Positions 3,097-52,988 of a stretch of DNA of 64,000 bases are shown here, piece after piece. The stretch lies in assembly GCA_964614645.1 (NCBI GenBank), contig CAZTMA010000001.1:1295-65294 (forward strand). The letters are read 5' to 3'. The notes under the pieces are model-generated. The model made no database searches, had not been told where the DNA came from, and saw only the letters and a list, made by a program, of their open reading frames with translations. Origin of the DNA: an uncultured Anaerolineales bacterium. GTDB taxonomy: Bacteria > Chloroflexota > Anaerolineae > CG2-30-64-16. The stretch's first letter is position 1; the number at the start of each line of letters is the position of its first letter. The position numbers were made by a program, and so were the translations under genes.

Positions 3097-3291
3097 TCTT
3101 GCAGCTCCATCTATCGGACGGGCGGAGAGACCTCTCTCCGCCCGTCCGTCTGTCCGCACGCTTGTAGCACGGGTTGTCACCCCGTCTTATGTCGGGCCCG
3201 TCTCCCTCGCGCGGTTGCCGCGCGCACCATTTTGGCGTACACTATCCTCCGTGCTCATCTTGCAGAACCCATGATTATCAGACGGGAGTCA

Positions 3292-5474
3292 TGCCCATGA
3301 CTGTTCGGCGCTCACTCTATGCTGCAGCCTTCGCGGGGCTGCTGCTCTTCCTGGCCGGTCTGCTGCTGGCCGTGCGCAGCAGCGCCGGGGGCTGGACCGG
3401 CGGGATCGCCCTGGCAGATACGCGGGCCGCATTCACAGGCATCATTCCCTGGCTGGCCTTGGCGGTTGTCGGGTTGGTTGTCTTCGGCGTCGCCTGGGGC
3501 ATGACGAACCGCGGCGCGCGGCCGCTGACGCTGGCAGGTGCGGCCGAACGCGGGCAGCCCGTGCGCAAGGCGACCCTGTATGCCGGCCAACTCTTGCTGC
3601 TGGCCGCAGGCGTGGCGTTGACGGTGCTGGCGCTGCGCGGCGCAGCCCTGCAATTCTTCGCAGGGCTGGGCTTGGGCCCCGATGAGGCGCTGCCCGGCTG
3701 GCCCGTCGTGCAGGTGGTGGCCGGCCTCCTGAGCCTGCTAGCCTGGGGCTATCTGCGCTATGAGACGCTACGCGACGACGACCTGGGCCGCGAGCAGGGG
3801 CTGGCCGTCGGCTGGCGGCGCGCGTACACCTATCTCGCCGCACTCGGGGGATTGGCCCTCAGCGTGGGCGGCATGGGCGAGTTCATCCGGTCCGTAATTG
3901 CCCTGGGCATCCAGCCGCTTGCGCCGGATGCACCGTGGCGCGTGCCGATGGCCGGGGCGGTGGCCGCGCTGGTGGTGGGCGTGCCGCTGGCTGCGATGGC
4001 CTGGCGCTGGTCGACCCGCAGCGCCGCAGCGCGCCCTGCCCCGGAGATGAACGCCCTGAGCCGCGTGCTCCTTCGTCACGGTGCGCTGCTGGCCGCCGCG
4101 CTCGTGACGCTCCTGGCCCTCGGCTACCTCATCCATGACGTCATCCTGCTCATCCTGGGTCAGCGCGCCGGCCAGTGGTGGGGCTATGCCCTTGCCTACT
4201 TCCCGGCCATGCTGGTGCTCTGGCTGACCTTCAGCAGCGGCATCCAGGGCGACCGGGCGCGCGGCGGCGAAAGCCCGCGCACGGCGCGTGTCCGCCGGAT
4301 TGTGCGGTACACGATCACTGCACTGGCGCTGGCCGCATTCTGGCTCGGGCTGACCGAAGTCGCGCGACTTGTGCTGCAGATGGCGCTCGCACGGCAGGCG
4401 GGCAATGTGGAGCTGGATGCGGTCTGGCGGGGGCGCTTTGCCCTCGCGACCGCGCTGGTCTTGGTCGGTGCGCCGGGCTGGTGGGGCCACTGGTGGCCGC
4501 TCCATGTGCGCGCCCGGCTCAACACGCCTGGCGGCCACAACGAGCGCGCCTCGGGCATTCGCCGCGTTTATCTGTTTGCGGTGGTGCTCATCGGCGCGGC
4601 GGTGCTGGTGTTTTCCCTCGGGTTCGGCGTCTTCCTGGGCATGAATCTCGACGGCGTTACCACCGTGGGCGGCGTGCTGGGCGCACTGGCAGGCGCGATT
4701 GCCGGTGCGGTCATCGCCCTGCTCTGGGCCGCGGCACATGCGCTGGTCCTGCGGGGCGACGAGCGGCTTCTGGCGCGTGACACAGCGGAGGCCGAGCGCC
4801 AGCGGGCGTACAGGCAGCCTGTTGTCTCCGCGGCGGCCGCGGCTCCGGTCGTGGCGGAGATGTCTGCATCGGCGACGGTTGAGCGCGTCTCGTCATTCGA
4901 GTCCGCACCACGTTCTGCCGGCGCACCTCTGCGCTATCGGCGGGAAGACTTGCCTTCCCTGCCGGAGTCGCCCGCGGACTTCCCCGCGGCTGTTGGACAG
5001 GTCGCTGCGAGCTCAGCCGCTGCCACCGCCGGAGAGCCAGCACAGGCTGTGGCGGTGGTGGATGGGGAGAACGGCGTGGCAGGCGCCGCCCTCGTGGCCG
5101 GGCTGCGCCGCGCGCTGCCTGACCTGGTCATCTGGCCGGTCGGCCTGAATGCCGCAGCTCAGGTGGAGATGCTGGCCGCGCTGGGCGATGGCACACCCCC
5201 TGCCGTGCCTGCCACTGCACTGGAGTCCGTTTCGCTCATTCTCGGCCCCGCCGATATCGTGACGCCCGGCGGCATGGACGGCGAAGTGACCGACGAGGTG
5301 TTCGCGGCGATCAGCGCCAGCCCGGCGACGGTGTTCCTGCTGCCGCCGCGCAATGCGCGGCTCCAGTGGATTGCCGCGCCCGAGTGGTCGCTGGCGCAGT
5401 GGGTGGACCATGCGGTTCTAGAGGTGCAACTGGCATTGGGCATCCTGCCGCCTGAGCCGGCGCCCGAGATTTGA
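3292..5474 (+). CDS. Large polytopic membrane protein (about 12 TM helices) with an Ala-rich cytoplasmic C-terminal region; function unknown
   Basis: Long ORF with repeated hydrophobic segments. Start chosen at the ATG pair at 3292/3298, behind a GGGAG ribosome-binding site. The in-frame upstream stretch 3174-3291 lacks TM character. Confidence 0.55.
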
Positions 5475-6590: not shown

Positions 6591-9001
6591 CAGTCAAATC
6601 CTCCGATTACCCCGCTCGCTGCCCCCACCAGTGCATCGCTCACCCCCGTCGGTCGAAAGGCAAACCGCACGAAAAGCGGGTCGTGATCGGAGCTGCGCAG
6701 GCTCGTCGTGTCGGGCGCCAGCTTCTCGGGGAAATCCGCGTTGATGTGCACCGGTCCGCCTGCGAGATAGTAGGCGTCAAGGCCGGTCGTGGTAACAAAG
6801 TGATCCAGCACCTCGGCACGCCCTTCATAAATGTAAGTATAGCGACCTGCGGGTGAGACATAACGCGCGAAAAGGTTGGCGTAACCTGCGAATGGCGCCA
6901 GCGTGTCGGACGCCAGCAGGTCGTTGAAATCGCCCAGCGCAACCGCGTGCGGCCCGGCATCCGGCGCGCGCAGCAGCTCCGCAACAAACGCCGCCTGCAG
7001 GACGCGGCGCGGAGCATTGTCGGCCTCGTCCCCCCGCTTGGACTTGAAGTGGTTGACGATCACGCGGACTTCGAGCGCCCGGTCGCCGGCCGCATTGCGC
7101 ACGACCAGGTCGGCCACGTAGGGCGGCCGGTCGAACAGCGGATAGGTGCCCTCGGCGCAGGGATTCGTCGTCGCACGGGGTCCGCGTGCGGCAGCATAAT
7201 TCACCCCGTAGTCGGTCGCGGTGCAGGTCTGCGCCGGCGCGCTCCGCCGCAACTCCACGCGTCTGGCATCATAGAGCAGGCCCACCGTGATATCACGGAC
7301 ATCCGCGCTCTCATAATAGTCATAACGGTAGCGTGGCCCCGCGGCCTCCGCCAGCGCGGCCCAGACTGCATCCTTCCCCTCGACTTCCTGCAGCCCTACG
7401 ACCGTGCAGCCCTGCAGGTTCTGCAGGATGGCATTCGCCCGCTTGGCCAGTTGCACGCGGAACTCGGCGGCATTCGCCGGCGACCAGTCGCCCACATCGC
7501 CGTCGCCATCGTCCACTGCGTCGAACAGGTCCAGCACGTTGAACGAGCAGATGGCGAACTCGTCCGGGCCGATGACGCGCTCCATAGGGACGGGCTCAGG
7601 CCGATCCGTCACGGTCAACCGCGCCGGGTCATCCACCAGCAGGACGTACCGGCCGAACTGGTAGGCCAGGATGCCGGTCAGGTCGGTCGCCGCAATCAGG
7701 TCCGCTGTCCCGGCCAGGGGCAGGTCCACGCCCAGCCCGCCCGACAATGCAATGCTGCCGCGACCTTCCGGCAGGAGGGGCGCCTGCTCAGGTGCCGCGG
7801 ACTCCGTGAAGACGCGTAGGCCGTAGTGCGGGCTGCTCCGGTCCACCAGGACAATCTCGGGGTCTCCGGCCGGATAGCGGGACGCGTAGCGGTGCGTCGG
7901 GCCGATGACTGATCCGTCGAAGCTCAGGCTGACCCGCATTCCCTCGAACCGTTCGTAGACCGCGTCCGGGTCAATGGTCGGGTCGCCCGGCGGGGGGATC
8001 GGGCCGGGTGCGGGCAGCGGGCAGCGGCCCGTCATCCGGTATGAGGCAGTCGTATCGTCGGACAGGCCGACAATCTCCGTCTGGCCGTAGAACTCCTGCA
8101 CGCGGAAGTCGACCAACTCGACCAGCGTGCCCGGCGCCAGGCCGCGCGGGTTTTGCCAGGAAGTATAGCGGAAGACGAAGATGCCGTCGGAGGTGGCCGG
8201 GTTCAGATCCGGCGCGGGGTCCTGCAGGAAAAAGCCATCTGCGGTCACGCCGGTCACGCAGCCGGTGAGCCGCCCGAAGGTCGTTTCGTCGTCAAAGGGA
8301 GTAGTGGCTGCAGGGCCCTGTAGCTGCGCAATCGTCACCGCGGGACTGGCCGCAACGCTGCACGCGGCGGGGCGGATGTCCGCCTGGCTGCGCGGCCACA
8401 CCTGCGCGCCATCGTAATCCGCGCTCAGGCCGCTGACGGTGGCCGGGCAGCCGTTCTGCAGGCCCGTGATGGACAGCCCCAGCCGCTCGGTGAGGTAGAT
8501 GAGCGCGCCGCCGACGCGGAAACGCCGCTCGCTGAGCCGCGAGACCGGCCCGGTGAGTTGCACGAGGCGGCCTTCGGTGGCCTCGCCCACCTGGCCGGGC
8601 TGCACGACCTGGGGAGCAGGGGGAGTTGCGCCCGTTCCGAGCCGGATGACACGCGCCGGGCTGTCCGGCAGGATCTCGCGCAGCCCGTGATGCTCCGCGA
8701 GCCGGCCGCTGATGCAGACGGTATCTCCCGCGGCCAGCGCCTGCCCGATGCCACGGCCGGCGTAGACGTAGATTCCGCCGCTCGCATCCTGCAGGGCGAA
8801 CGACTGTCCGTCGGTGAACACCCCGGTGGCTACGCTGACCACGCCCTGGACGGTCACCTCCGTGTCGAGAGGCCGGATGCGCGCCTCCGCAACCGGTATG
8901 GCCCCGGCGCAGGTGGCCTGGGCGTCTGCGGCCGGCTCGGCCGGCAGCATCAGCCATAAGGCGATGAGGAAGACTGCGATGACGCGCGGGCGGTGGGACA
9001 T
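6563..9001 (-). CDS. Secreted extracellular nuclease, ExeM/NucH-like, endonuclease/exonuclease/phosphatase (EEP) family
   Basis: C-terminal EEP motifs (...NHFKSK..GD.ND...SDHDP). N-terminal signal peptide MSHRPRVIAVFLIALWLMLPAEPAADA. Start set at the ATG at 9001 rather than the ORF-track 9058. Confidence 0.75.
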   Translation of the reverse strand: MSHRPRVIAVFLIALWLMLPAEPAADAQATCAGAIPVAEARIRPLDTEVTVQGVVSVATGVFTDGQSFALQDASGGIYVYAGRGIGQALAAGDTVCISGRLAEHHGLREILPDSPARVIRLGTGATPPAPQVVQPGQVGEATEGRLVQLTGPVSRLSERRFRVGGALIYLTERLGLSITGLQNGCPATVSGLSADYDGAQVWPRSQADIRPAACSVAASPAVTIAQLQGPAATTPFDDETTFGRLTGCVTGVTADGFFLQDPAPDLNPATSDGIFVFRYTSWQNPRGLAPGTLVELVDFRVQEFYGQTEIVGLSDDTTASYRMTGRCPLPAPGPIPPPGDPTIDPDAVYERFEGMRVSLSFDGSVIGPTHRYASRYPAGDPEIVLVDRSSPHYGLRVFTESAAPEQAPLLPEGRGSIALSGGLGVDLPLAGTADLIAATDLTGILAYQFGRYVLLVDDPARLTVTDRPEPVPMERVIGPDEFAICSFNVLDLFDAVDDGDGDVGDWSPANAAEFRVQLAKRANAILQNLQGCTVVGLQEVEGKDAVWAALAEAAGPRYRYDYYESADVRDITVGLLYDARRVELRRSAPAQTCTATDYGVNYAAARGPRATTNPCAEGTYPLFDRPPYVADLVVRNAAGDRALEVRVIVNHFKSKRGDEADNAPRRVLQAAFVAELLRAPDAGPHAVALGDFNDLLASDTLAPFAGYANLFARYVSPAGRYTYIYEGRAEVLDHFVTTTGLDAYYLAGGPVHINADFPEKLAPDTTSLRSSDHDPLFVRFAFRPTGVSDALVGAASGVIGGFDCYSQRLRLK

Positions 9002-9170
9002 GGCTGGCCTCACAGTAGGTTGCTTGTCCATGAAAACACAATGCCCGGAGAAGCGCAAACGCGGTCTACTTCCCTTTCTCTGTCTACCAGTTACCCTGTG
9101 CTATAATGCGAAGCACTGTCCGGCTGCCCATGCGTGGCTCGGCCGGTTCCTGCGATCTCCGGAGGCCCTG

Positions 9171-12100
9171 ATGCGACTAGCAGATTTCCCTCGTCCGAAA
9201 AACGATAATCGCCGCGGTGTGCATTGGTCCGCGTCGGTCTACCACCCCGCCGGCGGGGCGCTGGATTTCTGGATTTCCGAACTGCAGGCCATGAAAATCA
9301 AGTGGGTGAAGGTGCTGGATGACAGCGGCGGGTCATCGTTTGAGCTGTGCCAGCGCCTCCTCGCTGCGGACATCATGCCCGTCGTCCGCCTCTATCGCAT
9401 CGAGCCTAACCCGGGCCACATCGGGGGCCGCGAGGAAGACACCATCCGCCGGCTGGTCGCGGCGGGCGTCCGTTATTTCGAGACCAACAATGAGCCGGAT
9501 CTGCCTATCGAGTGGAAGGGCGGCAAGAAGCCGTCCAATTGGCTCGATGTCGTGATCGACAATTTCATCATCGATGCCGACAAGGTCATTTCACTCGGCG
9601 GCCTGCCCGCTCTCCCCGCGATGGGCGTTGGCAGCAAGCTCAACCCGGTTGCTGAGGTCGTTACGCGGGGCCGGGCCGACCTGTTTGACAACGGCGCGTG
9701 GGTGGCCATCCACAACTACACGATCAACCATCCGCTTGACTATCCCTACGACCCGGTCAACCAGGAGGGCCAGCCTGTCAGCGAGGAGGAGTATGACCGG
9801 CTGGGGCAGTGGGCCTGGGAAGGCCGGCCGCGCGAACAGATCAACGAGTGGCGGCAGTCGGACAAGAACCCCGGCGACACGCTGGCGGATGATGCGACCT
9901 GTTTCCTGTCGTTTCACCTGATGGACCAGATGATCCAGGAGGCCCTGGGCCATGCCGTGCCCATCATCAGCACCGAGGGTGGACCGGTCGTCGGCTGGAA
10001 GGAAGACCGCCGCTATCCGCGCGTCGACCCGAACACGCACGCCCAATGGGTGGCTGAGATTGCGGAGTTCATGCAGGGCACGCGCGAGATTCATGGGATG
10101 CGGTGCTCGGACAGCTACTTTTCGATGTGCCACTGGCTCATCGCCAACTACCGCATGGGCTTCCTTGCACCCACTTGGGAGAGCAACTCCTGGTACACGG
10201 ACTGGTGGAACGGAGACTTCAACCTGGCAGGTGAGCTGCCCGTCGTTGCGCGGCTGAAGGCGCTGGATGACCCACCGCCCGGCCCCGTCGACCGGGCCGT
10301 GGTCGCGGGCCACGTCCTGCGTGCCGACACCGGCGCAGGCCTGCCAGACCTCACCGTCAGGCTGCTCCAGGCGGACCGCGAGGTCAAGAGCGCGATCACC
10401 GGGCCGGACGGCGCATTTCGCATCGAGGGCCTGGCCGTGGGCGTCTACGACATCTCGATTGCGCCCTGGGGCATCGTGCGCCGCGGGGTCAGTGCGGTCG
10501 AGGAGGGGCCGGGCAATCCGCTGCCATCCGTCACCCTCCGGCTCAGCGGCGGCCAGAACAGCGTGCTCACGGGCACCGTGCAGAGCGCTACAGGTACGCC
10601 ACAAGCAGACGTCCGCGTCTGGCTGGCCCGCAACGGTGTGCCTGTCGGAGAGACCGTCACCGGCACGGACGGAGCGTTCCGCTTCGAGGCGCTGCCGCTG
10701 GGCTCCTACCGGCTCGACATCCCCGGCATCACGGTCGCAGGCATCGCACTGGACGGCTGGCAGACGAAGAACCTCCGCCTGACTGCGGGAGCGGCGGGGC
10801 AGTATCGGTACGCTGTCGTGCAGCGGCGGCTGCTGCCCCAGGATGAAACCGCGGGCCGGCGGATCTTCTACGGCACGGTGACGGATGCCAGCGGTGCGCC
10901 ACTGAATGGGATCAAGCTGCGGATGGCCTGGAACGGTGCGGAGCCGGGCACGGACTTCCCGACTACGACGACCGGCCGCGATCCGTTCAAGCCTGCGGGT
11001 TCCTACGAGTTTGTGCACAGTCCCGGCACCTTCAACCTGCAGGTGGTACAGGGTGATTGGCCGAGCGATACCGCCGCCGATCTGGAGACGGCAAAGGTCC
11101 CCGGCCGCGAGGGTCAGGACATCACGTATGAGGTCAATTTCCGGCTGCAGGCGGCCGGCGCGCCCGCGCAGGTGGACGGCATGGTCGCGGGCGGCGCGAC
11201 GGATGCCCTGCTGACACTCACCGCCGCGGACGACACGGTGCGCACGACGCGGCTGGCCGGCGACGGCAGCTTTGTCTTCCCCAACCTGCCGGCAGGAACC
11301 TATCGCCTGTCCCTGGATGGCATCGGGGAGATTGCCGCGCAGATGGTGCTGGAGCCGGGTGCGCTGTTCAAGCTGCTCTTCCCCATGCGCAGCCGCCTGT
11401 CGGGGCACGTCGTCGACGCAGGCACGGTCGCGCCCGATGGCCTGGTGGCGGTGCTGTATGCGCCGGCCCCATGGGGCTGGACGCGGCAGGCGTTGCTTGA
11501 CCCCGCCGGCAACTTCGCGATTGACAACCTCCCGGCGGGCAGTTACCGGCTGGAGATCAACGGGCTGACGCTCCCCGACCTGGCGCTGAACGGCGAGAAC
11601 GAACTAAAACTGGCTTCACTCGACCTGAATCAGGGCCAGCGCAGCGTCGTGCGCGGGCGGGTGGCTGATGGTGCAGGCCGGCCCCAGGCGGATGTCCTGA
11701 TGACCCTCCGCCGCGACGGTATTCTGGTCGCTCAGACCCGCACCGACATCATGGGCGTGTACCGGTTCGTCAGGCTGCCGGCCGGAAGTTATCTGCTGGA
11801 GGCGGTGGGCCTGGGCCAGGTGGCGGCCTTCGTGCTCGACGGGGAGCGCCAGGAGGTCGCCGATGTGCTCTGGCCGCTGCCCGGCCCGCGCGGCATGGTG
11901 CAGGGCCATGTGCGGGACGCCGCAGGCGCACTCGTCTCTGGCATCTGGGTGCGTCTCCTGTCTGCGGGCGGCGAGGTCGCGCGCGTGCAGACCGACCTGA
12001 CCGGCGCCTTCCGCTTTGCGGAGCTGCCCGGCGGGGTGTATGCGCTGGCGCTGGCCGAGGGGGAGCCGCTGGTCACGGGCATCGTGCTCGAAGAGGATGC

Positions 12101-12449
12101 ACTGGTCACGCGCGACATCGTACTGCCGCCCGCGCCGGTCAGGCTGCTCGGCCATTATCTGCTGCTGGCTCCGCCGCCGGAGCCTGCCGCGCCGGGCCAT
12201 GCCGAGGCGCGGATGCTCCTGGCGCTGGTGTCGCAGCACGCTACGCGGGCGTCGGGCAGCATCAGTGCCGGCTACAGCGCCACCGACGCGGCCAACGCCA
12301 GCCGCGTCACTATCGTGGGCGACAACGTGCCGCCGGAAGTTGAAGCGACACTCCGGGCCGCAGGATGCCAGGTGAGCCGGCTGTCGGGCGATGGTTACGC
12401 GGTCGCCGCAGGCCTGGCCCAGCTTTTTGCCGAGGGGGTGAACTCATGA
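9171..12449 (+). CDS. Large cell-envelope protein: N-terminal GH-A (GH5-like) TIM-barrel domain, at least 8 Cna-B/carboxypeptidase-regulatory-like repeats, and a C-terminal cell-wall-binding-like (CW_binding_2-like) domain
   Basis: TNNEPD acid/base-like and IISTEGGP nucleophile-like motifs. Repeated ~85-aa units (V.G.V....G.P..DV.V.L......V.TG.DGAFRF..LP.G.Y.L). C-terminal LLGHYLLL..RVTIVGDNVP...RLSGDGYAV. Start at ATG 9171 after a GGAGG site. No signal peptide found. Confidence 0.65.
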   Translation: MRLADFPRPKNDNRRGVHWSASVYHPAGGALDFWISELQAMKIKWVKVLDDSGGSSFELCQRLLAADIMPVVRLYRIEPNPGHIGGREEDTIRRLVAAGVRYFETNNEPDLPIEWKGGKKPSNWLDVVIDNFIIDADKVISLGGLPALPAMGVGSKLNPVAEVVTRGRADLFDNGAWVAIHNYTINHPLDYPYDPVNQEGQPVSEEEYDRLGQWAWEGRPREQINEWRQSDKNPGDTLADDATCFLSFHLMDQMIQEALGHAVPIISTEGGPVVGWKEDRRYPRVDPNTHAQWVAEIAEFMQGTREIHGMRCSDSYFSMCHWLIANYRMGFLAPTWESNSWYTDWWNGDFNLAGELPVVARLKALDDPPPGPVDRAVVAGHVLRADTGAGLPDLTVRLLQADREVKSAITGPDGAFRIEGLAVGVYDISIAPWGIVRRGVSAVEEGPGNPLPSVTLRLSGGQNSVLTGTVQSATGTPQADVRVWLARNGVPVGETVTGTDGAFRFEALPLGSYRLDIPGITVAGIALDGWQTKNLRLTAGAAGQYRYAVVQRRLLPQDETAGRRIFYGTVTDASGAPLNGIKLRMAWNGAEPGTDFPTTTTGRDPFKPAGSYEFVHSPGTFNLQVVQGDWPSDTAADLETAKVPGREGQDITYEVNFRLQAAGAPAQVDGMVAGGATDALLTLTAADDTVRTTRLAGDGSFVFPNLPAGTYRLSLDGIGEIAAQMVLEPGALFKLLFPMRSRLSGHVVDAGTVAPDGLVAVLYAPAPWGWTRQALLDPAGNFAIDNLPAGSYRLEINGLTLPDLALNGENELKLASLDLNQGQRSVVRGRVADGAGRPQADVLMTLRRDGILVAQTRTDIMGVYRFVRLPAGSYLLEAVGLGQVAAFVLDGERQEVADVLWPLPGPRGMVQGHVRDAAGALVSGIWVRLLSAGGEVARVQTDLTGAFRFAELPGGVYALALAEGEPLVTGIVLEEDALVTRDIVLPPAPVRLLGHYLLLAPPPEPAAPGHAEARMLLALVSQHATRASGSISAGYSATDAANASRVTIVGDNVPPEVEATLRAAGCQVSRLSGDGYAVAAGLAQLFAEGVNS

Positions 12450-42164: not shown

Positions 42165-42372
42165 CTCTGGGCGAACAACCTGCGTACATAGTTGTGGCAA
42201 ACAGTGTGCTTGTGCTTCACGGGCCTTGCATCCTGAGTGGCTTTCTCATATAATGTCTGCTGTGTGGATCGCATCTTCTCTTGTGTGAAACGCGGGCTTT
42301 CGCTCCATAATTCACACAGGAGAAAGAAATGCGCTGGCTGTATGCATTCCGGTAAGACAGGAGAGTGCGCTC

Positions 42373-43236
42373 ATGGCAGATTTCGGCTCCATCATCAAGC
42401 AGTTGAACGAGTTGAAGAAGGAGGTCGAGAAGGTCGGTCCGGACCTGGCTCCCAAGGTCGGAGAAATCAGTGATGCCCTTGGCCGATTGTCGGTCGAGGT
42501 TGGTGAAATGACGATCGAGCACCGCCCCCAGGTCGAGCCGCCCACGCGGCCGGGCCGGGAGATCGTCGGCGGTGCGGAAACGCAGGACTTCCCCGATTGC
42601 TGCGCGCTGGGGGACGACCGCGGGTACTACTGCTCAGGCACGCTCATCGCACCGAACGTAGTTGTGACGGCGGAGCACTGCCAGGGTCTGACGCGGGTCT
42701 ACCTGCGGGGCACCGACGTGACGAAGCCGGACGGCGCCGAGATTATCCCCATCGCGGAGGAATTCGTCCACCCCGAACTCGACCTGCGCGTCCTCGTGCT
42801 CAAGCACAACGCCGCTACCCCCCCGCGTACGGTCGGCCATGCAGCGCAGTTGGACGGCATCAAAGAGGTCACGCTTGTCGGCTTCGGCACGATCGACCCG
42901 GATGGCCGGTTCGGCTACGGCATCAAGCGCCGGGTGGACGTGCCCATCAAGACGTTCGACTGTGGGCAGATGGGCGAGGCGAAGCGGTTCGGTTGCCTGC
43001 CGGGCCGGGAGATTGTCGCCGGCCATGCAGGGCTGATGCTGGATTCGTGCAAGGGTGACAGCGGCGGGCCGCTCTACATCCAGCAGGATGGCGAGTTCTA
43101 CCTGCTGGGCGTGACCTCACGCGGCGCGCGGGGCGGGTTCCGCGAGTGCGGCGACGGCGGCATCTACGTGCGTGTGGACCTGTGCCTGGATTGGATTCGC
43201 GAAGTGACCGGCGCGGAAATCGCGCAGGCCGCGTGA
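42373..43236 (+). CDS. Cytoplasmic trypsin-like (S1) serine protease with a ~55-aa N-terminal coiled-coil extension (island gene A)
   Basis: IVGG...TAEHC (His)...GDSGGP (Ser). No signal peptide or TM segment. Confidence 0.8.
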   Translation: MADFGSIIKQLNELKKEVEKVGPDLAPKVGEISDALGRLSVEVGEMTIEHRPQVEPPTRPGREIVGGAETQDFPDCCALGDDRGYYCSGTLIAPNVVVTAEHCQGLTRVYLRGTDVTKPDGAEIIPIAEEFVHPELDLRVLVLKHNAATPPRTVGHAAQLDGIKEVTLVGFGTIDPDGRFGYGIKRRVDVPIKTFDCGQMGEAKRFGCLPGREIVAGHAGLMLDSCKGDSGGPLYIQQDGEFYLLGVTSRGARGGFRECGDGGIYVRVDLCLDWIREVTGAEIAQAA

Positions 43237-43260: not shown

Positions 43261-44313
43261 ATGCCTAAGGAACTCAACCGCCAGGCCCACATGGTCCTGC
43301 GCGAGGCTCTGACCGGTCTCTATTGGGACGTGAAGGACATCAGGCTGGTCACGAAGGACGCAGGGCTCAATGTCGGACGTATCGGTTGGAACGAGGCGGC
43401 ACAGATCTCGTGGGAGAACGTCCTGAATGAGGCCAACAATCAAGGCTTGGTCAAGGTGCTGGCGCAGCGCGTGCTGAAGGATTACCCCAACGAAGAGCAG
43501 ATCAAGCTGGCTGCGGCAGGCGAACTGACCGCCATCCCAACCCCTTCGCTACCTGCGGAGGACCTGGCCCGCTTGAAGACGGGGGGCCGGCTCGAGAAGA
43601 TCATCGGTGCGGCGAGCACCTTCCGGCCGATCGGGTTCCTGGAGCGCGGCATGAAGGTCTCCCGTTCGGTGTGCCGTGTCGTTCTGCCGCTGAAGCCGGG
43701 CGAGGATAAGCCCGGCACCGGCAGCGGCTTCCTCATCGACGGCAACATTCTCATCACCAACCATCACGTGCTGCCCGATGCAGCGACGGCCCGCGCCGCG
43801 CATGTTGAATTCAACTATCAAACGGACGAATTGGGTGCGGAGCTGACGCCGACCCCCTATGACCTCGATCCGGACGCGCCCAATGGGTTCGCCACCTCGC
43901 TCCTGGATGAACAAGGTGGCGACGACTGGACCGCGGTCAAGGTCAAGGGCGATCCTGCGACGAAGTGGGGCACGCTGCGCATCTTCAAGCTGGAAGCAGA
44001 GGCCATGCCGAAGGAGAAGGATGAGGTCATCGTCATCCAGCATCCCGGCGGCGGACGCAAGCAGATTGCCCTGTCGCACAACACGGTTGTCGAGGCGAGT
44101 GAGCGGCGCGTCCAGTACCTGACCGACACCGCCGAAGGCTCATCAGGCTCCCCGGTGTTCGATGTGAAGTGGCGCGTGGTCGCGCTGCACCACGCTGGCG
44201 ACTGGCTGACCGGCGTGACGACCGGCAAACCGGTATATGCCAACCAGGGGATCCACATCAATCAGGTTATCGCCGGGTTGAGAAAAGCAGGAATGTTAAC
44301 GGACGGCTCTTGA
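43261..44313 (+). CDS. N-terminal ~70-aa helical adaptor (EAD-like, 'N-dom') fused to an active Trypsin_2-like serine protease (island gene B)
   Basis: ITNHHV (His), DDWTAV (Asp), GSSGSPV (Ser). N-dom L..LY......R.V.KDAGL...RI.....AQI.W..V..EA is shared with genes C, D and E. Confidence 0.75.
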   Translation: MPKELNRQAHMVLREALTGLYWDVKDIRLVTKDAGLNVGRIGWNEAAQISWENVLNEANNQGLVKVLAQRVLKDYPNEEQIKLAAAGELTAIPTPSLPAEDLARLKTGGRLEKIIGAASTFRPIGFLERGMKVSRSVCRVVLPLKPGEDKPGTGSGFLIDGNILITNHHVLPDAATARAAHVEFNYQTDELGAELTPTPYDLDPDAPNGFATSLLDEQGGDDWTAVKVKGDPATKWGTLRIFKLEAEAMPKEKDEVIVIQHPGGGRKQIALSHNTVVEASERRVQYLTDTAEGSSGSPVFDVKWRVVALHHAGDWLTGVTTGKPVYANQGIHINQVIAGLRKAGMLTDGS

Positions 44314-44325
44314 GGAGGTCGCATC

Positions 44326-44928
44326 ATGTCGTGGCACGCATCGCTCAGCCGGTTGGTCCAGGTCCTCGCGAATCTCTATGACACCGAAGCACAGGCTCGC
44401 ATTGTGGCGAAGGATGCCGGACTGGACCTGACGCGCATTCCTCTCAGTGGCAGCGCACAGATCTTCTGGGATGCCATCGTGACCGAAGCCCACAAACAGA
44501 ACTGCATGGAAGCGCTGGTGCAGCAGGCGCGGAGTGAGTTTCCCCTGAACGCAGAACTGCAGGCGACCTTGCAGGCAATTCAGCAGGACTATCTCGCCTG
44601 GCAGCAGGAGCCGGTCGTGGTTGAGCCAGCTGCCCCGCGCATCTACCAGCTCACGCCGCAGCAGAAACGGCCGCTTGTCGATGCGCTGCTCGGTTGCCCC
44701 ACGATGCAAGCCCGCCAGAGCCGGGACACTGTCGTAGAGGATCTGCGAGCAGATATCCGGAACAACGTCGAGCGGCACAACGCGCCGCGCCTGGATGTGA
44801 ACAGCATCGTCAGCACTGCGCTGGTCTACGCGGGCGGGCTCCAGGAACTGATCGAGGCCGTGCGCAACTACGAAGGCGACTCGCTGCCGATGATAGAAGT
44901 GGACCGGGTGATCGCTTCGTTCGGGTAA
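44326..44928 (+). CDS. Adaptor protein: N-dom + C-terminal ~90-aa helical 'X' domain (...GGL.ELIEAVR.YEGDSLPM..VDRVI..FG) (island gene C)
   Basis: By-eye alignment of its N-dom to gene B and of its X domain to genes D and E. Confidence 0.65.
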   Translation: MSWHASLSRLVQVLANLYDTEAQARIVAKDAGLDLTRIPLSGSAQIFWDAIVTEAHKQNCMEALVQQARSEFPLNAELQATLQAIQQDYLAWQQEPVVVEPAAPRIYQLTPQQKRPLVDALLGCPTMQARQSRDTVVEDLRADIRNNVERHNAPRLDVNSIVSTALVYAGGLQELIEAVRNYEGDSLPMIEVDRVIASFG

Positions 44929-44963
44929 GGCCATAGCGTCAGTTGCACAGGAGGGCCGGGGGG

Positions 44964-46640
44964 ATGGACGTCGCCAAACAGCGGGAAATCGTGGAGGCTC
45001 TCACTGCCTGTCCCAGCATGGGCAGCGAGCCGCGCCGCGACGCGGTCGTGGAAGAACTGCGCGAGAGCATCCGGTCTGCGATCGACCGCAGCGCGTCAGG
45101 CCGCGATGATGTGACGGCGATTGTCCGCGCCTGTCTCCAGTTCTTCAACGGGCTGGAGGAACTGGTGGCCGCGGTGCGCGTACGCGACGGGGACTCGCTT
45201 CCGATGCAGAACCTCGACCGGGTGATTCTGCGGGTGTTCGGCTTCGACCTGGCGGAGGAGGAGATGGGCCTGCGGTTGCTGACCGTGCTGGCGGGCATCC
45301 AGGCCGCACCGGACGACCTCCAGCGCACCTACCGGCGTCTCCTGCCGCCCGACGTGGCGCCCGCCCCGGATGCTCGCGGCCTGTTCAGCGTGTTGCCGCA
45401 TCTCTGGCAGATATCGCGTGAACTGGCGACGCAGAGCCGCACCGGCAACGTACCGATCCTCGACTTCGTCGAACAACTGGCGCGCGATGCGCCGGGCAGC
45501 GTCGCGGGCCAGTTGCGCGGCTGGGCAACCGAGGTGACATCCCTGGTGCTCTCGACCGGACCCGCGGGACGGCCGGCGGACATGGTTATGCGCGGCACCG
45601 GAACCGGCGACGGCGGGGTCAGCGCGCTGGACCCGCGGCTGGCCATCCTCGCCAGCGTGCTCGCGGCCCTCTATCCTTCTATAGAGGCGTCGGGTGAGCT
45701 GGTGGCCGCAGCGCGCCTGAATCCGGTCGGCATCGAGTTTCGCGAACTGCCCTCGCTCAACTGGCACAACATCCTGACGGCTGCCGCGCGGCGCGACCGC
45801 GTTAGCCACCTGGTCGAAGCTGCGCTGGCAGACCAGCCAGACAACCCCTGGCTGAAGGTGGCGCTGGGCCAGCAGCAGTCGGCTTATGAGCCCGAGGTGC
45901 GGCCTTCCGATGAGCCCACAGCGGTAGCGCAACCATCGCCGGCCGCGGGAAGCCCGCTGCCGGCCTGGCCGCAGCACGTCAGCTTTCTGGAAGAAGCCCT
46001 GAATCGCGCCCAGGCGGTGCTGCTCATCCAGTTACCAAATGGGGGCAGTGGTACCGGCTTCCTCGTACAAGGTGATCTCCTGATTACCGGTGGATTCAAC
46101 ATCCGCAATGTTGCCGAGGCACGCGAGGCTGTCGTCCGCTGCAATTTCCAGCGTACGATGGGAGAACTGATGACGACTTCTGAGGAGCTCCGCCTGTTGC
46201 CGGATCAAGGCTTTGCAACCACAGAGGATCGGCTATGGACTGCGGTGCGGGTTGCCAGGAAGCCGACTGAACGCTACGGCTATCTGCACCTTGAGCCGGC
46301 CAGCCCCCAGGTCAAGGATCGGGTCAGCCTGATCCATCATACCGGAGGCGGGCCGAAGCAACTGGAACTTCTAAATCGGATTGTAATTGATGTGGACAAA
46401 TCCAGTCTCCAGTATGACACGGAGAACCCCCTCCACAGCATCAAGCAGCCCGGGTCCGGGGGGGCGCCGATCTTCGATGTGAATTGGCGGGTCGTCGGGG
46501 TGCATCGTGCGCACGGCACGCTGAAGGCCCTTTCCGGTGGGGAGCGCCGTTGCAGCGAAGGGGTGCACATCAATGTCATCATCGAGGGGTTGAAGGCCGC
46601 CGGCCTGTATCTGGGCAAGGGGGAGGGTGAGACACCATGA
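44964..46640 (+). CDS. X domain + linker + N-dom + degenerate (His- and Ser-less) trypsin-like domain, a pseudoprotease (island gene D)
   Basis: Aligned to gene B, ITNHHV becomes ITGGFN and GSSGSPV becomes GSGGAPI. The X domain sits at the N-terminus (EELVAAVRVRDGDSLPMQNLDRVI). Confidence 0.65.
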   Translation: MDVAKQREIVEALTACPSMGSEPRRDAVVEELRESIRSAIDRSASGRDDVTAIVRACLQFFNGLEELVAAVRVRDGDSLPMQNLDRVILRVFGFDLAEEEMGLRLLTVLAGIQAAPDDLQRTYRRLLPPDVAPAPDARGLFSVLPHLWQISRELATQSRTGNVPILDFVEQLARDAPGSVAGQLRGWATEVTSLVLSTGPAGRPADMVMRGTGTGDGGVSALDPRLAILASVLAALYPSIEASGELVAAARLNPVGIEFRELPSLNWHNILTAAARRDRVSHLVEAALADQPDNPWLKVALGQQQSAYEPEVRPSDEPTAVAQPSPAAGSPLPAWPQHVSFLEEALNRAQAVLLIQLPNGGSGTGFLVQGDLLITGGFNIRNVAEAREAVVRCNFQRTMGELMTTSEELRLLPDQGFATTEDRLWTAVRVARKPTERYGYLHLEPASPQVKDRVSLIHHTGGGPKQLELLNRIVIDVDKSSLQYDTENPLHSIKQPGSGGAPIFDVNWRVVGVHRAHGTLKALSGGERRCSEGVHINVIIEGLKAAGLYLGKGEGETP

Positions 46641-47797
46641 AGTTTGAGGATATCGTGCGCCGGCTGGCGGATTTGTTGGCCGAGTTGTTCCCCGCAGCGG
46701 CCGCTGGGCCGCGCCTTGCCGAGGCAGCCGGCATCGAGTTGGAAGGCAGCCTGCTCGACGGGGGCCAGGATCGGGTAGCCTGGTGGCGCGCCGCGCTCAG
46801 CACAGTGACGGAGGAACAGGTGGGCAAGCTGCTGGCGCTGGCCCAGCAGGAGCGTGCCGGTTCCTTTGCCCTGTTGATCCTGCAGAGCGAATTCGAGCGG
46901 TGGTGGCGCGAACGCCACCAGGTCTACCGCGGGGCCAAATCCGGAGCCCGACCTGAACCGGTGTCCCCACCGGCACCCATTTCGAAGGACGTGGAGCCGC
47001 CCGAAACCACCGGGCCATCCGCTCCGCAATCCTCTTTCTCCGCTGGGGTTGCGGCAGTGACTACCCTGCGGCTGGACGCTGCCGTGCCGGAGCGCGTCGT
47101 AGTAGGCCGGCCCTTCACGATTGCCGTGGCCGTCCGCCAACTGGCCTCCCCGCGGCTGAGCGAGGCGGATATGCCTGTGATGCGCTCCAGCGATGCGCAG
47201 GTGTTCTGGCCCGCGGGGCAGCCGTTCGTGCGGCTGCGCCTCGAGGTCTCGTCGGCATACTGCACGGTGAACAATGAGTCATCGCGCGCCTTCAGGCTCT
47301 ACCAGGCCCACGACTCGCCCACATTCTACTTCTCCCTGACGCCCACCGTTACCGGCCAGATCGATGTCCATATCGAGCTGTACCAGGAAGATGACCTCAT
47401 CGGCAGCACGCGCATCAACACCACGGCGGATGAGCAGGTGCAGCGGCTGGCCGGCACGGTCGAGATCGTGATGCACAGCCAGACCGTCGAGGCTGCGCGG
47501 ATGACGGCCGCGGCGAAGATGAAATTGGCGAAGACGCTGCTGCGCTGCCCGACCGTCCTCGACCGGGAGAATCGGGATGCGATCGTCACCGATCTGCCCG
47601 AGGAGATTCGGCTTGGAGTGAGCCGCAGCGATTCAGCCCTGCTCGACGTCCAGAACATCATCGGGCTGGCTTTGAACTATGAGGGAGGGCTGAACGCCTT
47701 CATCGAGGGGGTGCGCCTGTTCGAAGGCAATTCGCTCCCCATGGCGAAGGTGGATCGCGTCCTGGGCGAGATTGGTTGGGTCGGTCTGGCGGACTGA
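46637..47797 (+). CDS. N-dom + beta-rich middle domain + C-terminal X domain (island gene E)
   Basis: 4-nt overlap with gene D. C-terminus ...GGLNAFIEGVRLFEGNSLPMAKVDRVLGEIG. Confidence 0.65.
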   Translation: MKFEDIVRRLADLLAELFPAAAAGPRLAEAAGIELEGSLLDGGQDRVAWWRAALSTVTEEQVGKLLALAQQERAGSFALLILQSEFERWWRERHQVYRGAKSGARPEPVSPPAPISKDVEPPETTGPSAPQSSFSAGVAAVTTLRLDAAVPERVVVGRPFTIAVAVRQLASPRLSEADMPVMRSSDAQVFWPAGQPFVRLRLEVSSAYCTVNNESSRAFRLYQAHDSPTFYFSLTPTVTGQIDVHIELYQEDDLIGSTRINTTADEQVQRLAGTVEIVMHSQTVEAARMTAAAKMKLAKTLLRCPTVLDRENRDAIVTDLPEEIRLGVSRSDSALLDVQNIIGLALNYEGGLNAFIEGVRLFEGNSLPMAKVDRVLGEIGWVGLAD

Positions 47798-50037: not shown

Positions 50038-50093
50038 GACTCTTGCAACAGACATGCCTGACGATTACGACTGACCAGGATAAGGACAACATC

Positions 50094-50876
50094 ATGCCAA
50101 AAATCGCCATTACCGGAAAAGGCGGCGTCGGGAAGACGACGTTGACCGCGCTGCTCTCGTACGTTTATGCCCAGCAGGGCCACGATGTGATTGCCATTGA
50201 CGCGGACCCCGCGGGCAACCTGGGGATGGCCTTCGGGCTCAGTGCGGCGCTGGATGCTGAGCTCAAGCCCATCGCGGAGATGGAAGCCTTGATCTACGAG
50301 CGCACCGGCGCCCAGCCCGGCACGGTCGGCGGCTGGTTCAAGCTCAACCCTAAGGTGGACGACATCCCTGACAATTTCAGCATCCACCACCGGGGCGTGC
50401 GGCTCCTGCGCCTGGGCACGGTGCGCGGGGGCGGGACGGGTTGCCTGTGTCCTGAAAATGCGCTGCTCAAAGCCCTGGTCACGCACCTGTTGTTGCGCAA
50501 GAACCAGACGCTTATCCTGGATATGGAAGCGGGCGTGGAGCACCTGGGCCGGGGCACAGCCGGCTCCGTCGATGCATTCGTGATTGTAGTGGAGCCGGGC
50601 CTGCGCAGCCTGGGCACTGCGGAGCAGATCCGCGGGCTGGCTGCAGAAATCGGCATCCATCAGGTGTACCTGGTCGCAAACAAGACCCGTCATGCGGACG
50701 ATGAGGCCTTTATCCGGGCCCATGCGGATGGGATGCCCGTGTTGGGCAGCCTGCCGTATACCGCCGATGCAGTGGCCGCGGATCAGGGAGGGCTGGCCGT
50801 TTTCGACCAGGCGCCTGAGCTGCTGGCGGCCGCAGAGCGGATCGCGGATGCCCTGGCAGAACTTGCAGTGACGTGA
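50094..50876 (+). CDS. CooC-family P-loop ATPase (nickel-insertion/MinD-ParA class) with a CxC motif
   Basis: IAITGKGGVGKTT, IDADP, and GTVRGGGTGCLCPENALLKAL closely resembling the CooC metal-site region. Confidence 0.8.
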   Translation: MPKIAITGKGGVGKTTLTALLSYVYAQQGHDVIAIDADPAGNLGMAFGLSAALDAELKPIAEMEALIYERTGAQPGTVGGWFKLNPKVDDIPDNFSIHHRGVRLLRLGTVRGGGTGCLCPENALLKALVTHLLLRKNQTLILDMEAGVEHLGRGTAGSVDAFVIVVEPGLRSLGTAEQIRGLAAEIGIHQVYLVANKTRHADDEAFIRAHADGMPVLGSLPYTADAVAADQGGLAVFDQAPELLAAAERIADALAELAVT

Positions 50877-50882
50877 GGCGAG

Positions 50883-51851
50883 GTGGCTATGACTGAGGAA
50901 GCGCGCTTGAGTGCCTACGACGATGCACCCGTCTACACCATCAAGACGGTCGTGCAGGAGACGGGCATCCCGCCGGCCACGTTGCGGGCCTGGGAACGGC
51001 GTTACGGGGTATTGTCGCCCGGCCGCAGCGACGGCGGCTATCGGCTCTATTCGGAGCGCGATATCGCCATCCTGCGCTGGCTGAAAACGCAGGTGGATAC
51101 AGGCGTCTCCATCAGCCGGGCTGTGGCGCTCCTGGAACTGCGGCACCAGGCCGGGGAGCAGCCGGAACGCAAGACCGCCCGATCCGGGCCGGATCAGGCG
51201 CTACTGGCCCCGGCGGGAGCGCGCAGCGCCGATGCCATCGGTGATGAACTGGTGGATGCTCTGTTAGCATTCCAGGAAGCGCGCGTGGAAACCCTCCTGA
51301 ACGAGGCCTTCGCGCTGTATCCGGTGGAAGCGGTGGCCGAGGACATCATCACGCCGGTCCTCGTTGAAATCGGTGAGATGTGGCACCGAGGCGAGGCGAG
51401 CGTCGTGCAGGAGCACTTCGCCACGGCAATCCTGCGCCGCCGGCTGACCGCCCTGTTCCACGCCTACGCGCAGCCCGCCGCGGGGCCGCTGGCCATGACC
51501 GGCTCCGGCCCGTCGGAATGGCATGATGTGGGCATTTTGCTCGTCAGTCTGGTGCTGCGCCGGATGGGTTGGCGGGTCATCTATCTGGGCCAGAATGTGC
51601 CTGCAGACCACTTGGGGCAGGAGATCGCCCGGCTGCGGCCCGCGCTGGTTTGCCTCTCCGCCAGTACCCGCGAAAGCGGAGACGCGCTGGCAGATGTATA
51701 CGAGTTAGTGCGCGCTCTGCCGGAGCCCCGGCCGCGCCTGGTCTTCGGCGGCCGCGCGTTCAATATTCACCCGGAACTGCGGAGCCGCTTTGCCGGCACC
51801 TACATCGCAGGCAGCGCTCGCGAACTCGCAAACGAATTAAGCCTCGGCTGA
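50883..51851 (+). CDS. carH: MerR-family regulator with C-terminal cobalamin-binding domain (CarH/LitR-like light sensor), paralogue 1
   Basis: MerR HTH (YTIKTVVQETGIPPATLRAWERRYG), W-x9-EH motif (EMWHRGEASVVQEHF), B12 Rossmann motif (EWHDVG). Confidence 0.8.
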   Translation: MAMTEEARLSAYDDAPVYTIKTVVQETGIPPATLRAWERRYGVLSPGRSDGGYRLYSERDIAILRWLKTQVDTGVSISRAVALLELRHQAGEQPERKTARSGPDQALLAPAGARSADAIGDELVDALLAFQEARVETLLNEAFALYPVEAVAEDIITPVLVEIGEMWHRGEASVVQEHFATAILRRRLTALFHAYAQPAAGPLAMTGSGPSEWHDVGILLVSLVLRRMGWRVIYLGQNVPADHLGQEIARLRPALVCLSASTRESGDALADVYELVRALPEPRPRLVFGGRAFNIHPELRSRFAGTYIAGSARELANELSLG

Positions 51852-52019: not shown

Positions 52020-52988
52020 GTGAGCATCAACGTGAACGAGCAGCGAGGCGAGACAGATACGCAGCCCGTGTATAACATCAAGGCGGTGGTGGAGGCCACG
52101 GGTCTGCCCGCGGCCACCTTGCGCGCCTGGGAACGGCGCTATGGCGCCCTTGTGCCCGGCCGCACCGACAGCGGCTACCGGCTCTATTCGGCTCAGGACA
52201 TCAAGGTGCTGCGCTGGCTCAAGGCGCGCGTGGAAGAAGGTCTCACGATTAGCCAGGCGATTGCCCTCCACCGCCATCGCAGGCTGGGCGAGCCCGGCGC
52301 AGCGGCCGACGAGCCTCGCGCTGAGAGCCGCCAGGGCCTGACCGGCGCGCGGGATATGCTGCTGGCTGCGCTGATAGATTTTGAGGAGGCGCAGGCTGAC
52401 CGGCTTCTGGAAGAGGCCTTTGCCGTGTACGGCCTCGAAGCGGTGACCGAGCATGTCATCGGCCCCACGATGGTGCAGATCGGTGACCGTTGGCATCGCG
52501 GGGAAGTGACCACCGCGGTCGAACATTTCGCGAGCAACTATCTGCGCCGCAAGATAGACGCCATCATCAACGCCGCGCCGCGCAGCGCCGCCGGCCCCCT
52601 GGTTGTCTTGGGATGTGCGCCGAACGATTGGCATGAGCTTGGGCTGCTCCTCATCTACCTGTTACTGCGCCGCCGCGGCCTGCGCACCCTTTACCTGGGC
52701 CAGAATGTGCCGGTGCTGCAGTTTGTCGAAGAAATGGAACGTCTGCGCCCCGCCATCGTCGTTATTGCTGCTACCACTGCTGAGACCGCTGGCGGCGTTG
52801 GGGAGCTGGCTGCAGCCCTACAGAGCCTGCCCGAACCGCGGCCGGTGTTTGCCTTTGGAGGTCGGGCCTTTAACGTTCAGCCTGAATTGCGCAGGGAGAT
52901 TCCGGGCATCTTTCTGGGCGAGAACGCACGTTCCGCCGTCGAGTACCTCGTAGCCTTACTCGATGACATTAAAACAGTTAGTCCGTAG
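52020..52988 (+). CDS. carH: MerR-family B12-binding regulator (CarH/LitR-like), paralogue 2
   Basis: YNIKAVVEATGLPAATLRAWERRYG, DRWHRGEVTTAVEHF, NDWHELG. Confidence 0.8.
   Translation: MSINVNEQRGETDTQPVYNIKAVVEATGLPAATLRAWERRYGALVPGRTDSGYRLYSAQDIKVLRWLKARVEEGLTISQAIALHRHRRLGEPGAAADEPRAESRQGLTGARDMLLAALIDFEEAQADRLLEEAFAVYGLEAVTEHVIGPTMVQIGDRWHRGEVTTAVEHFASNYLRRKIDAIINAAPRSAAGPLVVLGCAPNDWHELGLLLIYLLLRRRGLRTLYLGQNVPVLQFVEEMERLRPAIVVIAATTAETAGGVGELAAALQSLPEPRPVFAFGGRAFNVQPELRREIPGIFLGENARSAVEYLVALLDDIKTVSP

Follow-up and report, generated by a model that had tools for sequence, protein, structure and literature searches.

EAD1 and EAD2 adaptor domains recur among trypsin-like proteases, a pseudoprotease and adaptor-only proteins in a five-gene operon of an uncultured Anaerolineales bacterium

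Why do four consecutive genes of a bacterium carry copies of the same small helical domain, and what could these copies do for the proteases that lie among them? The question is raised by a stretch of 64,000 nucleotides (nt) from an uncultured Anaerolineales bacterium (contig CAZTMA010000001.1), the whole of which is hereafter called the window, and in which an earlier, sequence-only reading had described an "EAD-like" domain in four successive open reading frames (ORFs). The domain is EAD1 of Pfam. It occurs, together with a second adaptor domain, EAD2, in one tight operon of five genes (A to E), which encodes a candidate terminal protease (A), a predicted active protease fused to EAD1 (B), two bipartite adaptor proteins (C and E) and a conserved pseudoprotease with both adaptors (D). 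These parts are probably organized by a logic in which adaptors assemble proteases.

42165..42372, + strand: intergenic region upstream of gene A (208 nt), presumed promoter region of the five-gene operon
42373..43236, + strand: gene A, 287 amino acids (aa)
43261..44313, + strand: gene B, 350 aa
44326..44928, + strand: gene C, 200 aa
44964..46640, + strand: gene D, 558 aa from the ATG at 44964, or 565 aa from a TTG at 44943
46637..47797, + strand: gene E, 386 aa

The spacing of the genes is 24 nt between A and B, 12 nt between B and C and 14-35 nt between C and D, while D and E overlap by 4 nt. The 208-nt region before gene A is the sole gap of more than 35 nt in the cluster, and genes A to E are a single operon. 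No transmembrane or signal segment was found in any of the five proteins, all of which are predicted to be soluble.

In the Pfam search, EAD1 (PF19955; gathering cut-off of 24.2 bits) was recovered above its cut-off in B (residues 6-86, 27.5 bits), C (residues 7-83, 44.3 bits) and D (residues 235-306, 28.1 bits), and under it in E (residues 6-79, 18.2 bits, E-value of 0.0035). All four peptides quoted by the sequence-only reading are found in place in the consecutive + strand ORFs, its label was right (in E through profile-profile comparison), and the domain is located as claimed, that is, at the N-terminus of B, C and E and internally in D. Two of these four adjacent genes also encode trypsin-like domains. 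The literal pattern which accompanied the claim gave an exact match in none of the five operon proteins when used as a regular expression; as a consensus, it mostly reflects B and C.

The pairwise relationships of the EAD1 copies were determined by Smith-Waterman z-scores against 1000 shuffles, with values of 19.3 for B-C, 11.4 for B-D, 9.5 for C-D, 6.6 for C-E, 3.7 for D-E and 0.2 for B-E. These scores show that the similarity of EAD1 in B, C and D is far beyond chance and that B and C form the closest pair, in agreement with the sequence-only reading. For E, leave-one-out profiles from the four closest genomes only were too shallow and gave a marginal relation to the other copies (hhalign probability of 32%), and a homologue search with the 104 N-terminal residues of E returned no matches. 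The deeper profile-profile comparison, of the kind which the sequence-only reading had proposed as a check, was positive: 10 orthologues of E (62-100% identity) aligned with 20 EAD1 segments of the B, C and D types over 88 columns, with a probability of 92.8% and an E-value of 3.9e-7, so that a profile-profile relationship among the four segments was found. In addition, a hidden Markov model built from E only matches every orthologue of C (E-values of 5e-7 to 2e-3), and two diverged orthologues of E (P0015 and P0016) have precomputed PF19955 matches.

In the AlphaFold2 models EAD1 is a small, all-alpha domain. Residues 2-94 of C consist of five long helices and a short one (2-17, 21-30, 34-36, 44-57, 61-71 and 76-94; predicted local distance difference test, pLDDT, >90), and the N-terminal domain of E follows the same six-helix pattern (3-17, 23-30, 37-40, 46-53, 59-72 and 77-100). 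Despite its Pfam score under the cut-off, the N-terminal domain of E is treated here as a divergent member of EAD1, an assignment made from profiles and predicted structure. No catalytic family of Pfam matches the EAD1 regions of C or E.

The sequence-only reading caught half of the wiring and missed the EAD2 copies in C, D and E, the paralogy of B and D with the dead triad of the latter, VMAP-M0, and gene A. EAD2 (PF19956; gathering cut-off of 23.8 bits) is present in three adjacent genes, in C at residues 118-197 (72.3 bits), in D at residues 17-95 (71.0 bits) and in E at residues 300-376 (52.2 bits). These copies are mutually 43-46% identical and share 26 invariant columns. The features of C and E are as follows.

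44344-44574, + strand: EAD1 of C (Pfam), followed by a disordered linker
44677-44916, + strand: EAD2 of C (Pfam)
46652-46873, + strand: divergent EAD1 of E (Pfam under the cut-off, and hhalign); the helical domain extends to about 46936
between EAD1 and the sandwich, + strand: low-complexity linker of E
47054-47431, + strand: immunoglobulin (Ig)-like beta-sandwich of E (AlphaFold2, Foldseek)
47534-47764, + strand: EAD2 of E (Pfam)

By its domain content C is an adaptor-only protein, composed of EAD1 and EAD2. Its AlphaFold2 model (pLDDT of 89.6) shows two helical domains joined by a disordered linker at residues 96-110. In the model of E, residues 1-100 form six helices, residues 140-265 nine strands and residues 291-378 a helical region. 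The sandwich of residues 140-265 resembles the Ig-like domains of CARDB and macroglobulin MG in Foldseek, and the middle part of E has a match to DUF7363 of 22.6 bits, under the cut-off of that family (28.3 bits).

The remaining three proteins are trypsin-like, with the following parts.

42373-42561, + strand: N-terminal extension of A (residues 1-63), non-hydrophobic
43276-43518, + strand: EAD1 of B (Pfam)
43720-44187, + strand: Trypsin_2 domain of B (Pfam)
44991-45227, + strand: EAD2 of D
45270-45536, + strand: VMAP-M0 of D
45645-45860, + strand: EAD1 of D
46050-46502, + strand: dead trypsin-like domain of D

A has no EAD. Its residues 64-275 correspond to positions 1-220 of the Pfam Trypsin profile (PF00089, E-value of 1.8e-18), and the domain starts exactly at IVGG (Ile64). 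The motifs IVGG at 64, TAEHC at 99, ELDLRVL and DSCKGDSGGP at 224 are present, the His-Asp-Ser triad is intact, and DSCKGDSGGP supplies the equivalents of Asp189, Asp194 and Ser195. The junction (R/V)E-I(V/L)GG is kept in the five full-length copies of A (the sixth, in L010, is truncated at its 5' end), with Glu always as the residue preceding IVGG. With 54-83% identity, the extension is the faster-evolving part of A; the protease domain keeps 71-95%. By its sequence, A is a soluble trypsin of the S1A family, and it is a candidate for the terminal protease, putatively made as a zymogen.

In B, EAD1 is fused to a Trypsin_2 domain (E-value of 2.1e-21), whose triad motifs ITNHHV, DDWTAV and GSSGSP are kept in six orthologues. 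With its triad intact, B is predicted to be active. The closest solved relatives of its protease domain are the S1B Spl, exfoliative-toxin and glutamyl endopeptidases, although the matches are weak (E-values of 3e-5 to 8e-3).

D combines EAD2, VMAP-M0 (residues 110-198, 27.1 bits with a cut-off of 25.9), EAD1 and a Trypsin_2 domain of 33.7 bits. No VMAP-C was detected in it by Pfam up to an E-value of 1. Residues 235-555 of D are paralogous to residues 12-345 of B, that is, over the whole module of EAD1, linker and protease (30% identity, E-value of 2e-39). At the triad positions, the five orthologues of D read IT(G/A)G(F/Y)xI, (L/I)WTAV and G(S/A)GGAP, with His, Asp and Ser all replaced, and the triad is also lost in a homologue from the distant lineage L016 (43% identity over the full length; ITGSFVI, MWTAV and GSAGAP). 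The ratio of nonsynonymous to synonymous substitution rates (dN/dS) of this dead domain is 0.12-0.15. Since the triad has been lost and yet the dead domain remains under purifying selection, D is a conserved pseudoprotease.

Related contigs belong to metagenome-assembled genomes of Anaerolineae (Chloroflexota) from anaerobic digesters (AnMBR.bin525, ADurb.Bin325 and R69_164). In all those which reach upstream of A, the operon is located at one chromosomal site, behind the gene of a 2-hydroxyacid dehydrogenase, and in seven loci (L001, L002, L004, L005, L010, L011 and L014) it lies between this gene and that of TrkH. The site is conserved with gain and loss of genes. The window, L001 and L005 have the full A-B-C-D-E version; L002 and L004 show B-C-D-E, gene A being undetected or beyond the end of the contig; in L010 and L011/L012 the version is A-B-C-E, with D absent; and L014 shows the order A-X-B-Y-C-D. 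Gene A was found in L001, L005, L011 and L014. The C-D gene pair recurs in L016.

Some of these loci deserve separate mention. The natural four-gene version of L006, L011 and L012 (ADurb.Bin325 and a relative) is a possible ready-made "deletion" control for the pseudoprotease. In L010 (7084-7978), the orthologue of A is split or truncated into a 128-aa product with a weak Trypsin match and a 115-aa ORF upstream of it, possibly a pseudogene or an assembly error. Of the two inserted genes of L014 (2125-3468 and 4489-5493), X encodes 447 aa with no Pfam match, and Y encodes EAD1, one transmembrane helix and an uncharacterized C-terminal domain, which may be a membrane-anchored input. Between L004 and L010, B is nearly identical (EAD1 0% and protease 6% different), while C and E differ by 26-53%; this mosaic points to recombination inside the operon or to a chimeric metagenome assembly.

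All domains of the operon show dN/dS values of 0.05-0.5, and purifying selection acts on every part (for C, 0.12-0.33). The EAD1 domains are the fastest-evolving parts, and the catalytic, sandwich and VMAP-M0 parts are the slowest.

An exhaustive phmmer search with C retrieved 1208 relatives at E-values <=1e-3. Adaptor-only proteins with the full-length architecture of C, that is, EAD1 followed by EAD2 in about 190-215 aa, form at least 12 clusters at 50% identity. One relative (P0091) is a natural fusion of EAD1, EAD2 and Trypsin_2, joining an adaptor of the C type to a protease of the B type. Other relatives include arrays of three to six EAD1 copies with no protease, and a VMAP-C protein with three copies of EAD2 (P0019) is among the closest relatives of the EAD2 of C. 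A scan of a genome collection with the EAD2 alignment returned 5 loci with narrow patterns and was uninformative on further EAD copies per genome. A metagenome scan returned one locus of 2.3 kb.

Further EAD genes were noticed in single contigs. In two Anaerolineae, single genes encode EAD1-TIR-EAD2-FGS (L008, 9167-11155) and CHAT-EAD2-FGS (L009, 8765-11257); they occupy the same slot in a polysaccharide-synthesis locus and share the EAD2-FGS body with a swapped effector head. In L017, a reverse-transcriptase-like ORF (385-1938) with a YVDD motif and a C-terminal coiled coil is placed directly upstream of an EAD1-like ORF (1998-2270); this contig is a short one from a metagenome.

The definition of EAD1 and EAD2 as non-enzymatic adaptors of conflict systems goes back to Kaur, Burroughs, Iyer and Aravind in 2020 (eLife 9:e52696, PMC7159879), and the theme was extended in a follow-up paper (PMC8195603). 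According to their proposal, homotypic binding of these domains couples effectors (EAD1) and signalling peptidases (EAD2) to core components in a manner similar to that of the Death fold (PMC7159879). On this background, a probability of roughly 0.6 is given here to an adaptor-assembled logic of the proteases. EAD1, shared by B to E, and EAD2, shared by C to E, would each bind their own kind, as Death folds do. C and E, with both adaptors each, would cross-link the set and nucleate a complex in which the EAD1-tagged B is concentrated. Clustered B would become active by proximity and cleave downstream targets, the likeliest first one being the pro-extension of A at the conserved Glu63-Ile64 junction, with the exposure of Ile64. 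Cleaved A would then be a trypsin specific for Lys/Arg, freed in the cytoplasm and leading to the arrest or death of an infected or damaged cell within the filament. D, which has both adaptors and VMAP-M0 and is the dead paralogue of B, may act as regulator, scaffold or decoy of the assembly, similarly to cFLIP, and the candidate input (sensor) modules would be the Ig-like sandwich of E and/or the VMAP-M0 of D. The operon is probably a cell-suicide or immunity system.

Several observations weigh against this interpretation, and they concern both its individual steps and its setting. The cleavage of A by B is its weakest link and a pure inference; its sole basis is the conserved junction of Glu and Ile, together with a family resemblance that is weak. 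The S1A cysteines of A, which form disulfides in secreted trypsins, are kept in six of six copies, though A has no signal peptide, and such cysteines would fit a cytoplasmic role poorly. The proposed sensor domains are the most conserved parts of the operon and not the most variable ones. In a literature search, no experimental EAD-EAD binding was found, and homotypic binding is a prediction from architecture. The high-confidence model of C had no significant match among solved structures in Foldseek (best E-value of 1.1), with CARD domains only at a probability of <=0.14, and profile searches of PDB sequences gave no matches for the EAD parts. EAD1 as a CARD or Death domain was rejected, there being no significant structural or profile match to the six-helix bundle of the Death fold.

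A specific contact between B and C, which had also been proposed, did not fare as well as their ranking as the closest pair. When the EAD1 divergences of B and C were compared over eight loci in a partial Mantel test, with the rest of both proteins controlled, r was 0.04, a value equalled or exceeded in 2139 of 5000 permutations. Moreover, the EAD1 of B is identical in L004 and L010, while the EAD1 of C is 52% different. Since divergence is not associated and an identical B EAD1 stands beside very different copies in C, a specific matched B-C pair is unsupported. The two proteins may interact directly in a tolerant manner.

With respect to the setting, PADLOC detected no defence system at the locus, with only generic protease matches (LmuA, RT-Protease), and no mobile-element genes lie near the operon. 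The locus is a stable chromosomal site amid housekeeping genes and not a typical mobile defence island. In addition, one copy of each EAD is described as always being placed on a core component, with further copies possible elsewhere in the genome (PMC7159879). When about 50 window ORFs (A-E and about 45 others) were scanned against Pfam, no vWA, MoxR, STAND, iSTAND, GAP1, NucA or VMAP-C was found among them; in A-E no VMAP-C, STAND, GAP1 or Ubl match appeared up to an E-value of 1, and none in the other ORFs. MoxR and vWA are also absent from the flanks of the seven related loci.

The missing core divides the adaptor-assembled interpretation into two. That the operon is self-contained is given somewhat less than an even chance. 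The alternative, held with lower confidence and best regarded as possible, is a satellite module with no sensor or switch of its own, which EAD1 and EAD2 would dock on a nucleoside triphosphatase (NTPase) core elsewhere in the genome (vWA-MoxR-VMAP, iSTAND/STAND or GAP1) that supplies the trigger. The described placement of one EAD copy on a core, with others elsewhere, is what a satellite would follow. EAD2 is reported to recruit signalling peptidases to VMAP, and VMAP-M0, as seen in D, is otherwise described only within VMAP proteins (PMC7159879). The VMAP-C protein P0019 among the closest relatives of the EAD2 of C points in the same direction. Against a satellite stand the lack of any core gene in the window or in the flanks of the seven related loci, the fact that each EAD type is already partnered within the operon, and the inheritance of the operon as a unit at one site. 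The strongest form of the self-contained alternative, a complete NTPase-independent and Death-fold-like platform, seems unlikely as a whole. In it, C and E would be bipartite adaptors, B the initiator, D the tuner and A the executioner zymogen. Two orthogonal homotypic domains would connect them, and the sandwich of E or the VMAP-M0 of D would receive the trigger, with no STAND, MoxR or GTPase switch.

A different explanation, which we regard as improbable, is that the operon serves housekeeping or developmental proteolysis, as a module of regulated protein turnover or filament differentiation in Anaerolineae in which the EADs merely assemble a multi-subunit protease complex. The stable site amid metabolic and ion-transport genes across several species would suit it, as would the purifying selection on all parts, the negative PADLOC result and the lack of mobile-element genes nearby. 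However, the gene content turns over among close relatives, with D present or absent, X and Y inserted and A truncated in L010; B has a history different from that of C and E, and EAD1 is the fastest-evolving part. Elsewhere, EADs share proteins with TIR, CHAT and FGS, modules which typify conflict systems. Least probable of all is that the shared segment is a by-product of tandem duplication (B to D and C to E) serving its own protein as pro-domain, intramolecular inhibitor or folding aid: the paralogy of B and D over the whole module, the same domain order in C and E and the closeness of the EAD1 of E to that of C agree with duplication, but C consists only of EAD1 and EAD2 and is nevertheless under purifying selection (dN/dS as given above) in a family of at least 12 clusters, and EAD1 is also found on the TIR-FGS protein of L008, on the transmembrane protein Y of L014 and in the arrays of three to six copies with no protease.

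The adaptor-assembled interpretation can be further judged by comparison with known systems. As in the EADs of Kaur et al., the domains here are small, all-helical and non-enzymatic, are located at protein termini, are fused to a trypsin-like domain and have cognate copies in adjacent genes; the host is likewise a filamentous ("multicellular") bacterium, and EAD1 and EAD2 coexist in one protein, as in some VMAPs. On the contrary, no copy in the window is attached to a core (VMAP-C, iSTAND, GAP1 or Ubl), two proteins are adaptor-only, and VMAP-M0 appears apart from VMAP-C. EAD2 has been reported mainly from actinobacteria and cyanobacteria (PMC7159879), whereas the present operon belongs to Chloroflexota. 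D shares with some VMAPs the combination of VMAP-M0 (their commonest middle module), EAD1 and EAD2. For this reason the ternary vWA-MoxR-VMAP system was considered, and it was rejected, since neither the operon nor the rest of the window contains MoxR, vWA or VMAP-C.

"System 3", the NucA-peptidase system, is an NTPase-independent cascade of several trypsin paralogues, one of which carries EAD1 (PMC7159879). Several trypsin-like paralogues per operon are also found here (A, B and D, with EAD1 in B and D), with further EAD1 proteins beside them, and in both cases the thresholding step would be a proteolytic cascade for which an NTPase is not obligatory. NucA/HNH endonuclease, subtilisin and transmembrane segments are all missing from the present operon, which in addition has EAD2, adaptor-only proteins and a dead protease; it also differs in lineage, as System 3 is known from alphaproteobacteria. 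Identification as a NucA-peptidase system was rejected, since no nuclease family matched A-E or the neighbouring genes.

The closest experimentally studied analogue is the gasdermin operon of Lysobacter (Wein et al., PMC10312443), with a CARD-tagged trypsin-like protease and an NLR-like ATPase. Both operons have a pair of consecutive genes for trypsin-like proteases, of which one is catalytically dispensable, and in both a protease starts with a helical adaptor; the proposed logic, in which the adaptor mediates protease activation and thereby cell death, is similar. The adaptors differ: that of Lysobacter is CARD-like and has a crystal structure, whereas EAD1 gave no significant structural match to CARD. 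Moreover, neither the STAND/NLR-like ATPase nor a gasdermin, nuclease or phospholipase effector of that system occurs in this operon or window. With the Death-fold signalling of animals the likeness is one of analogy only: C and E resemble the two-adaptor proteins FADD (DD and DED) or ASC (PYD and CARD), while B, as an adaptor-tagged protease, and D, as its dead paralogue which keeps the adaptor, recall caspase-8 and cFLIP. The proteases here are serine and not cysteine proteases.

The EAD family and its proposed role are already published, and the observation made in this locus is confirmed. EADs were predicted in 2020 as bacterial equivalents of the Death, CARD and DED adaptors, and in the literature searched this prediction rests on architecture alone. 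For the lineage (Anaerolineae) and the layout, with a trypsin zymogen, an EAD1-protease, two bipartite adaptors, a pseudoprotease and no NTPase or nuclease nearby, no description was found in the literature search. The locus is a test-bed for the EAD prediction rather than a surprise. This is an unusually compact arrangement whose wiring may be closed, with five soluble proteins and two adaptor types, each of which has at least one further copy inside, and it offers a natural variant lacking D and a dead-enzyme paralogue. Such a compact and possibly closed set would make it a convenient system for the study of EAD1 and EAD2 self-binding, their orthogonality, the activation of a protease by clustering and regulation by a pseudoprotease. 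If the operon works with no NTPase, bacterial adaptor-driven protease cascades could be triggered with no NLR-like switch; if it is only the satellite of a distant core, it would be one more case of the described pattern.

The GC content of the operon (about 64%) is similar to that of the remaining window, and a consensus promoter scan of the 208-nt upstream region gave no + strand match, the promoter and terminator scan being uninformative. The upstream neighbours are all housekeeping genes, namely a GH127 glycosidase, an HpcH aldolase and the 2-hydroxyacid dehydrogenase. Downstream of E the TrkH gene is convergent, and the housekeeping genes on this side are TrkH/TrkA, a CooC-like ATPase, two MerR-B12 regulators and a Crp-family regulator.

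Apart from the operon, a few further genes of the window were noticed. The two MerR-B12 regulators (50883-51851 and 52020-52988) are tandem paralogues, each composed of MerR_1, B12-binding_2 and B12-binding, and resemble the light or B12 sensors CarH/LitR; they are preceded by the CooC/MinD-like ATPase gene (50043-50876), and the trio is kept in L001 and L002. At 3174-5474, a protein of 766 aa contains three DUF5671 repeats and a C-terminal DUF3842, an architecture that is unexplained. A protein of 1211 aa at 8814-12449 has at least five CarboxypepD_reg/transthyretin-like repeats and is followed by one of 465 aa with similar weak Ig-like matches.

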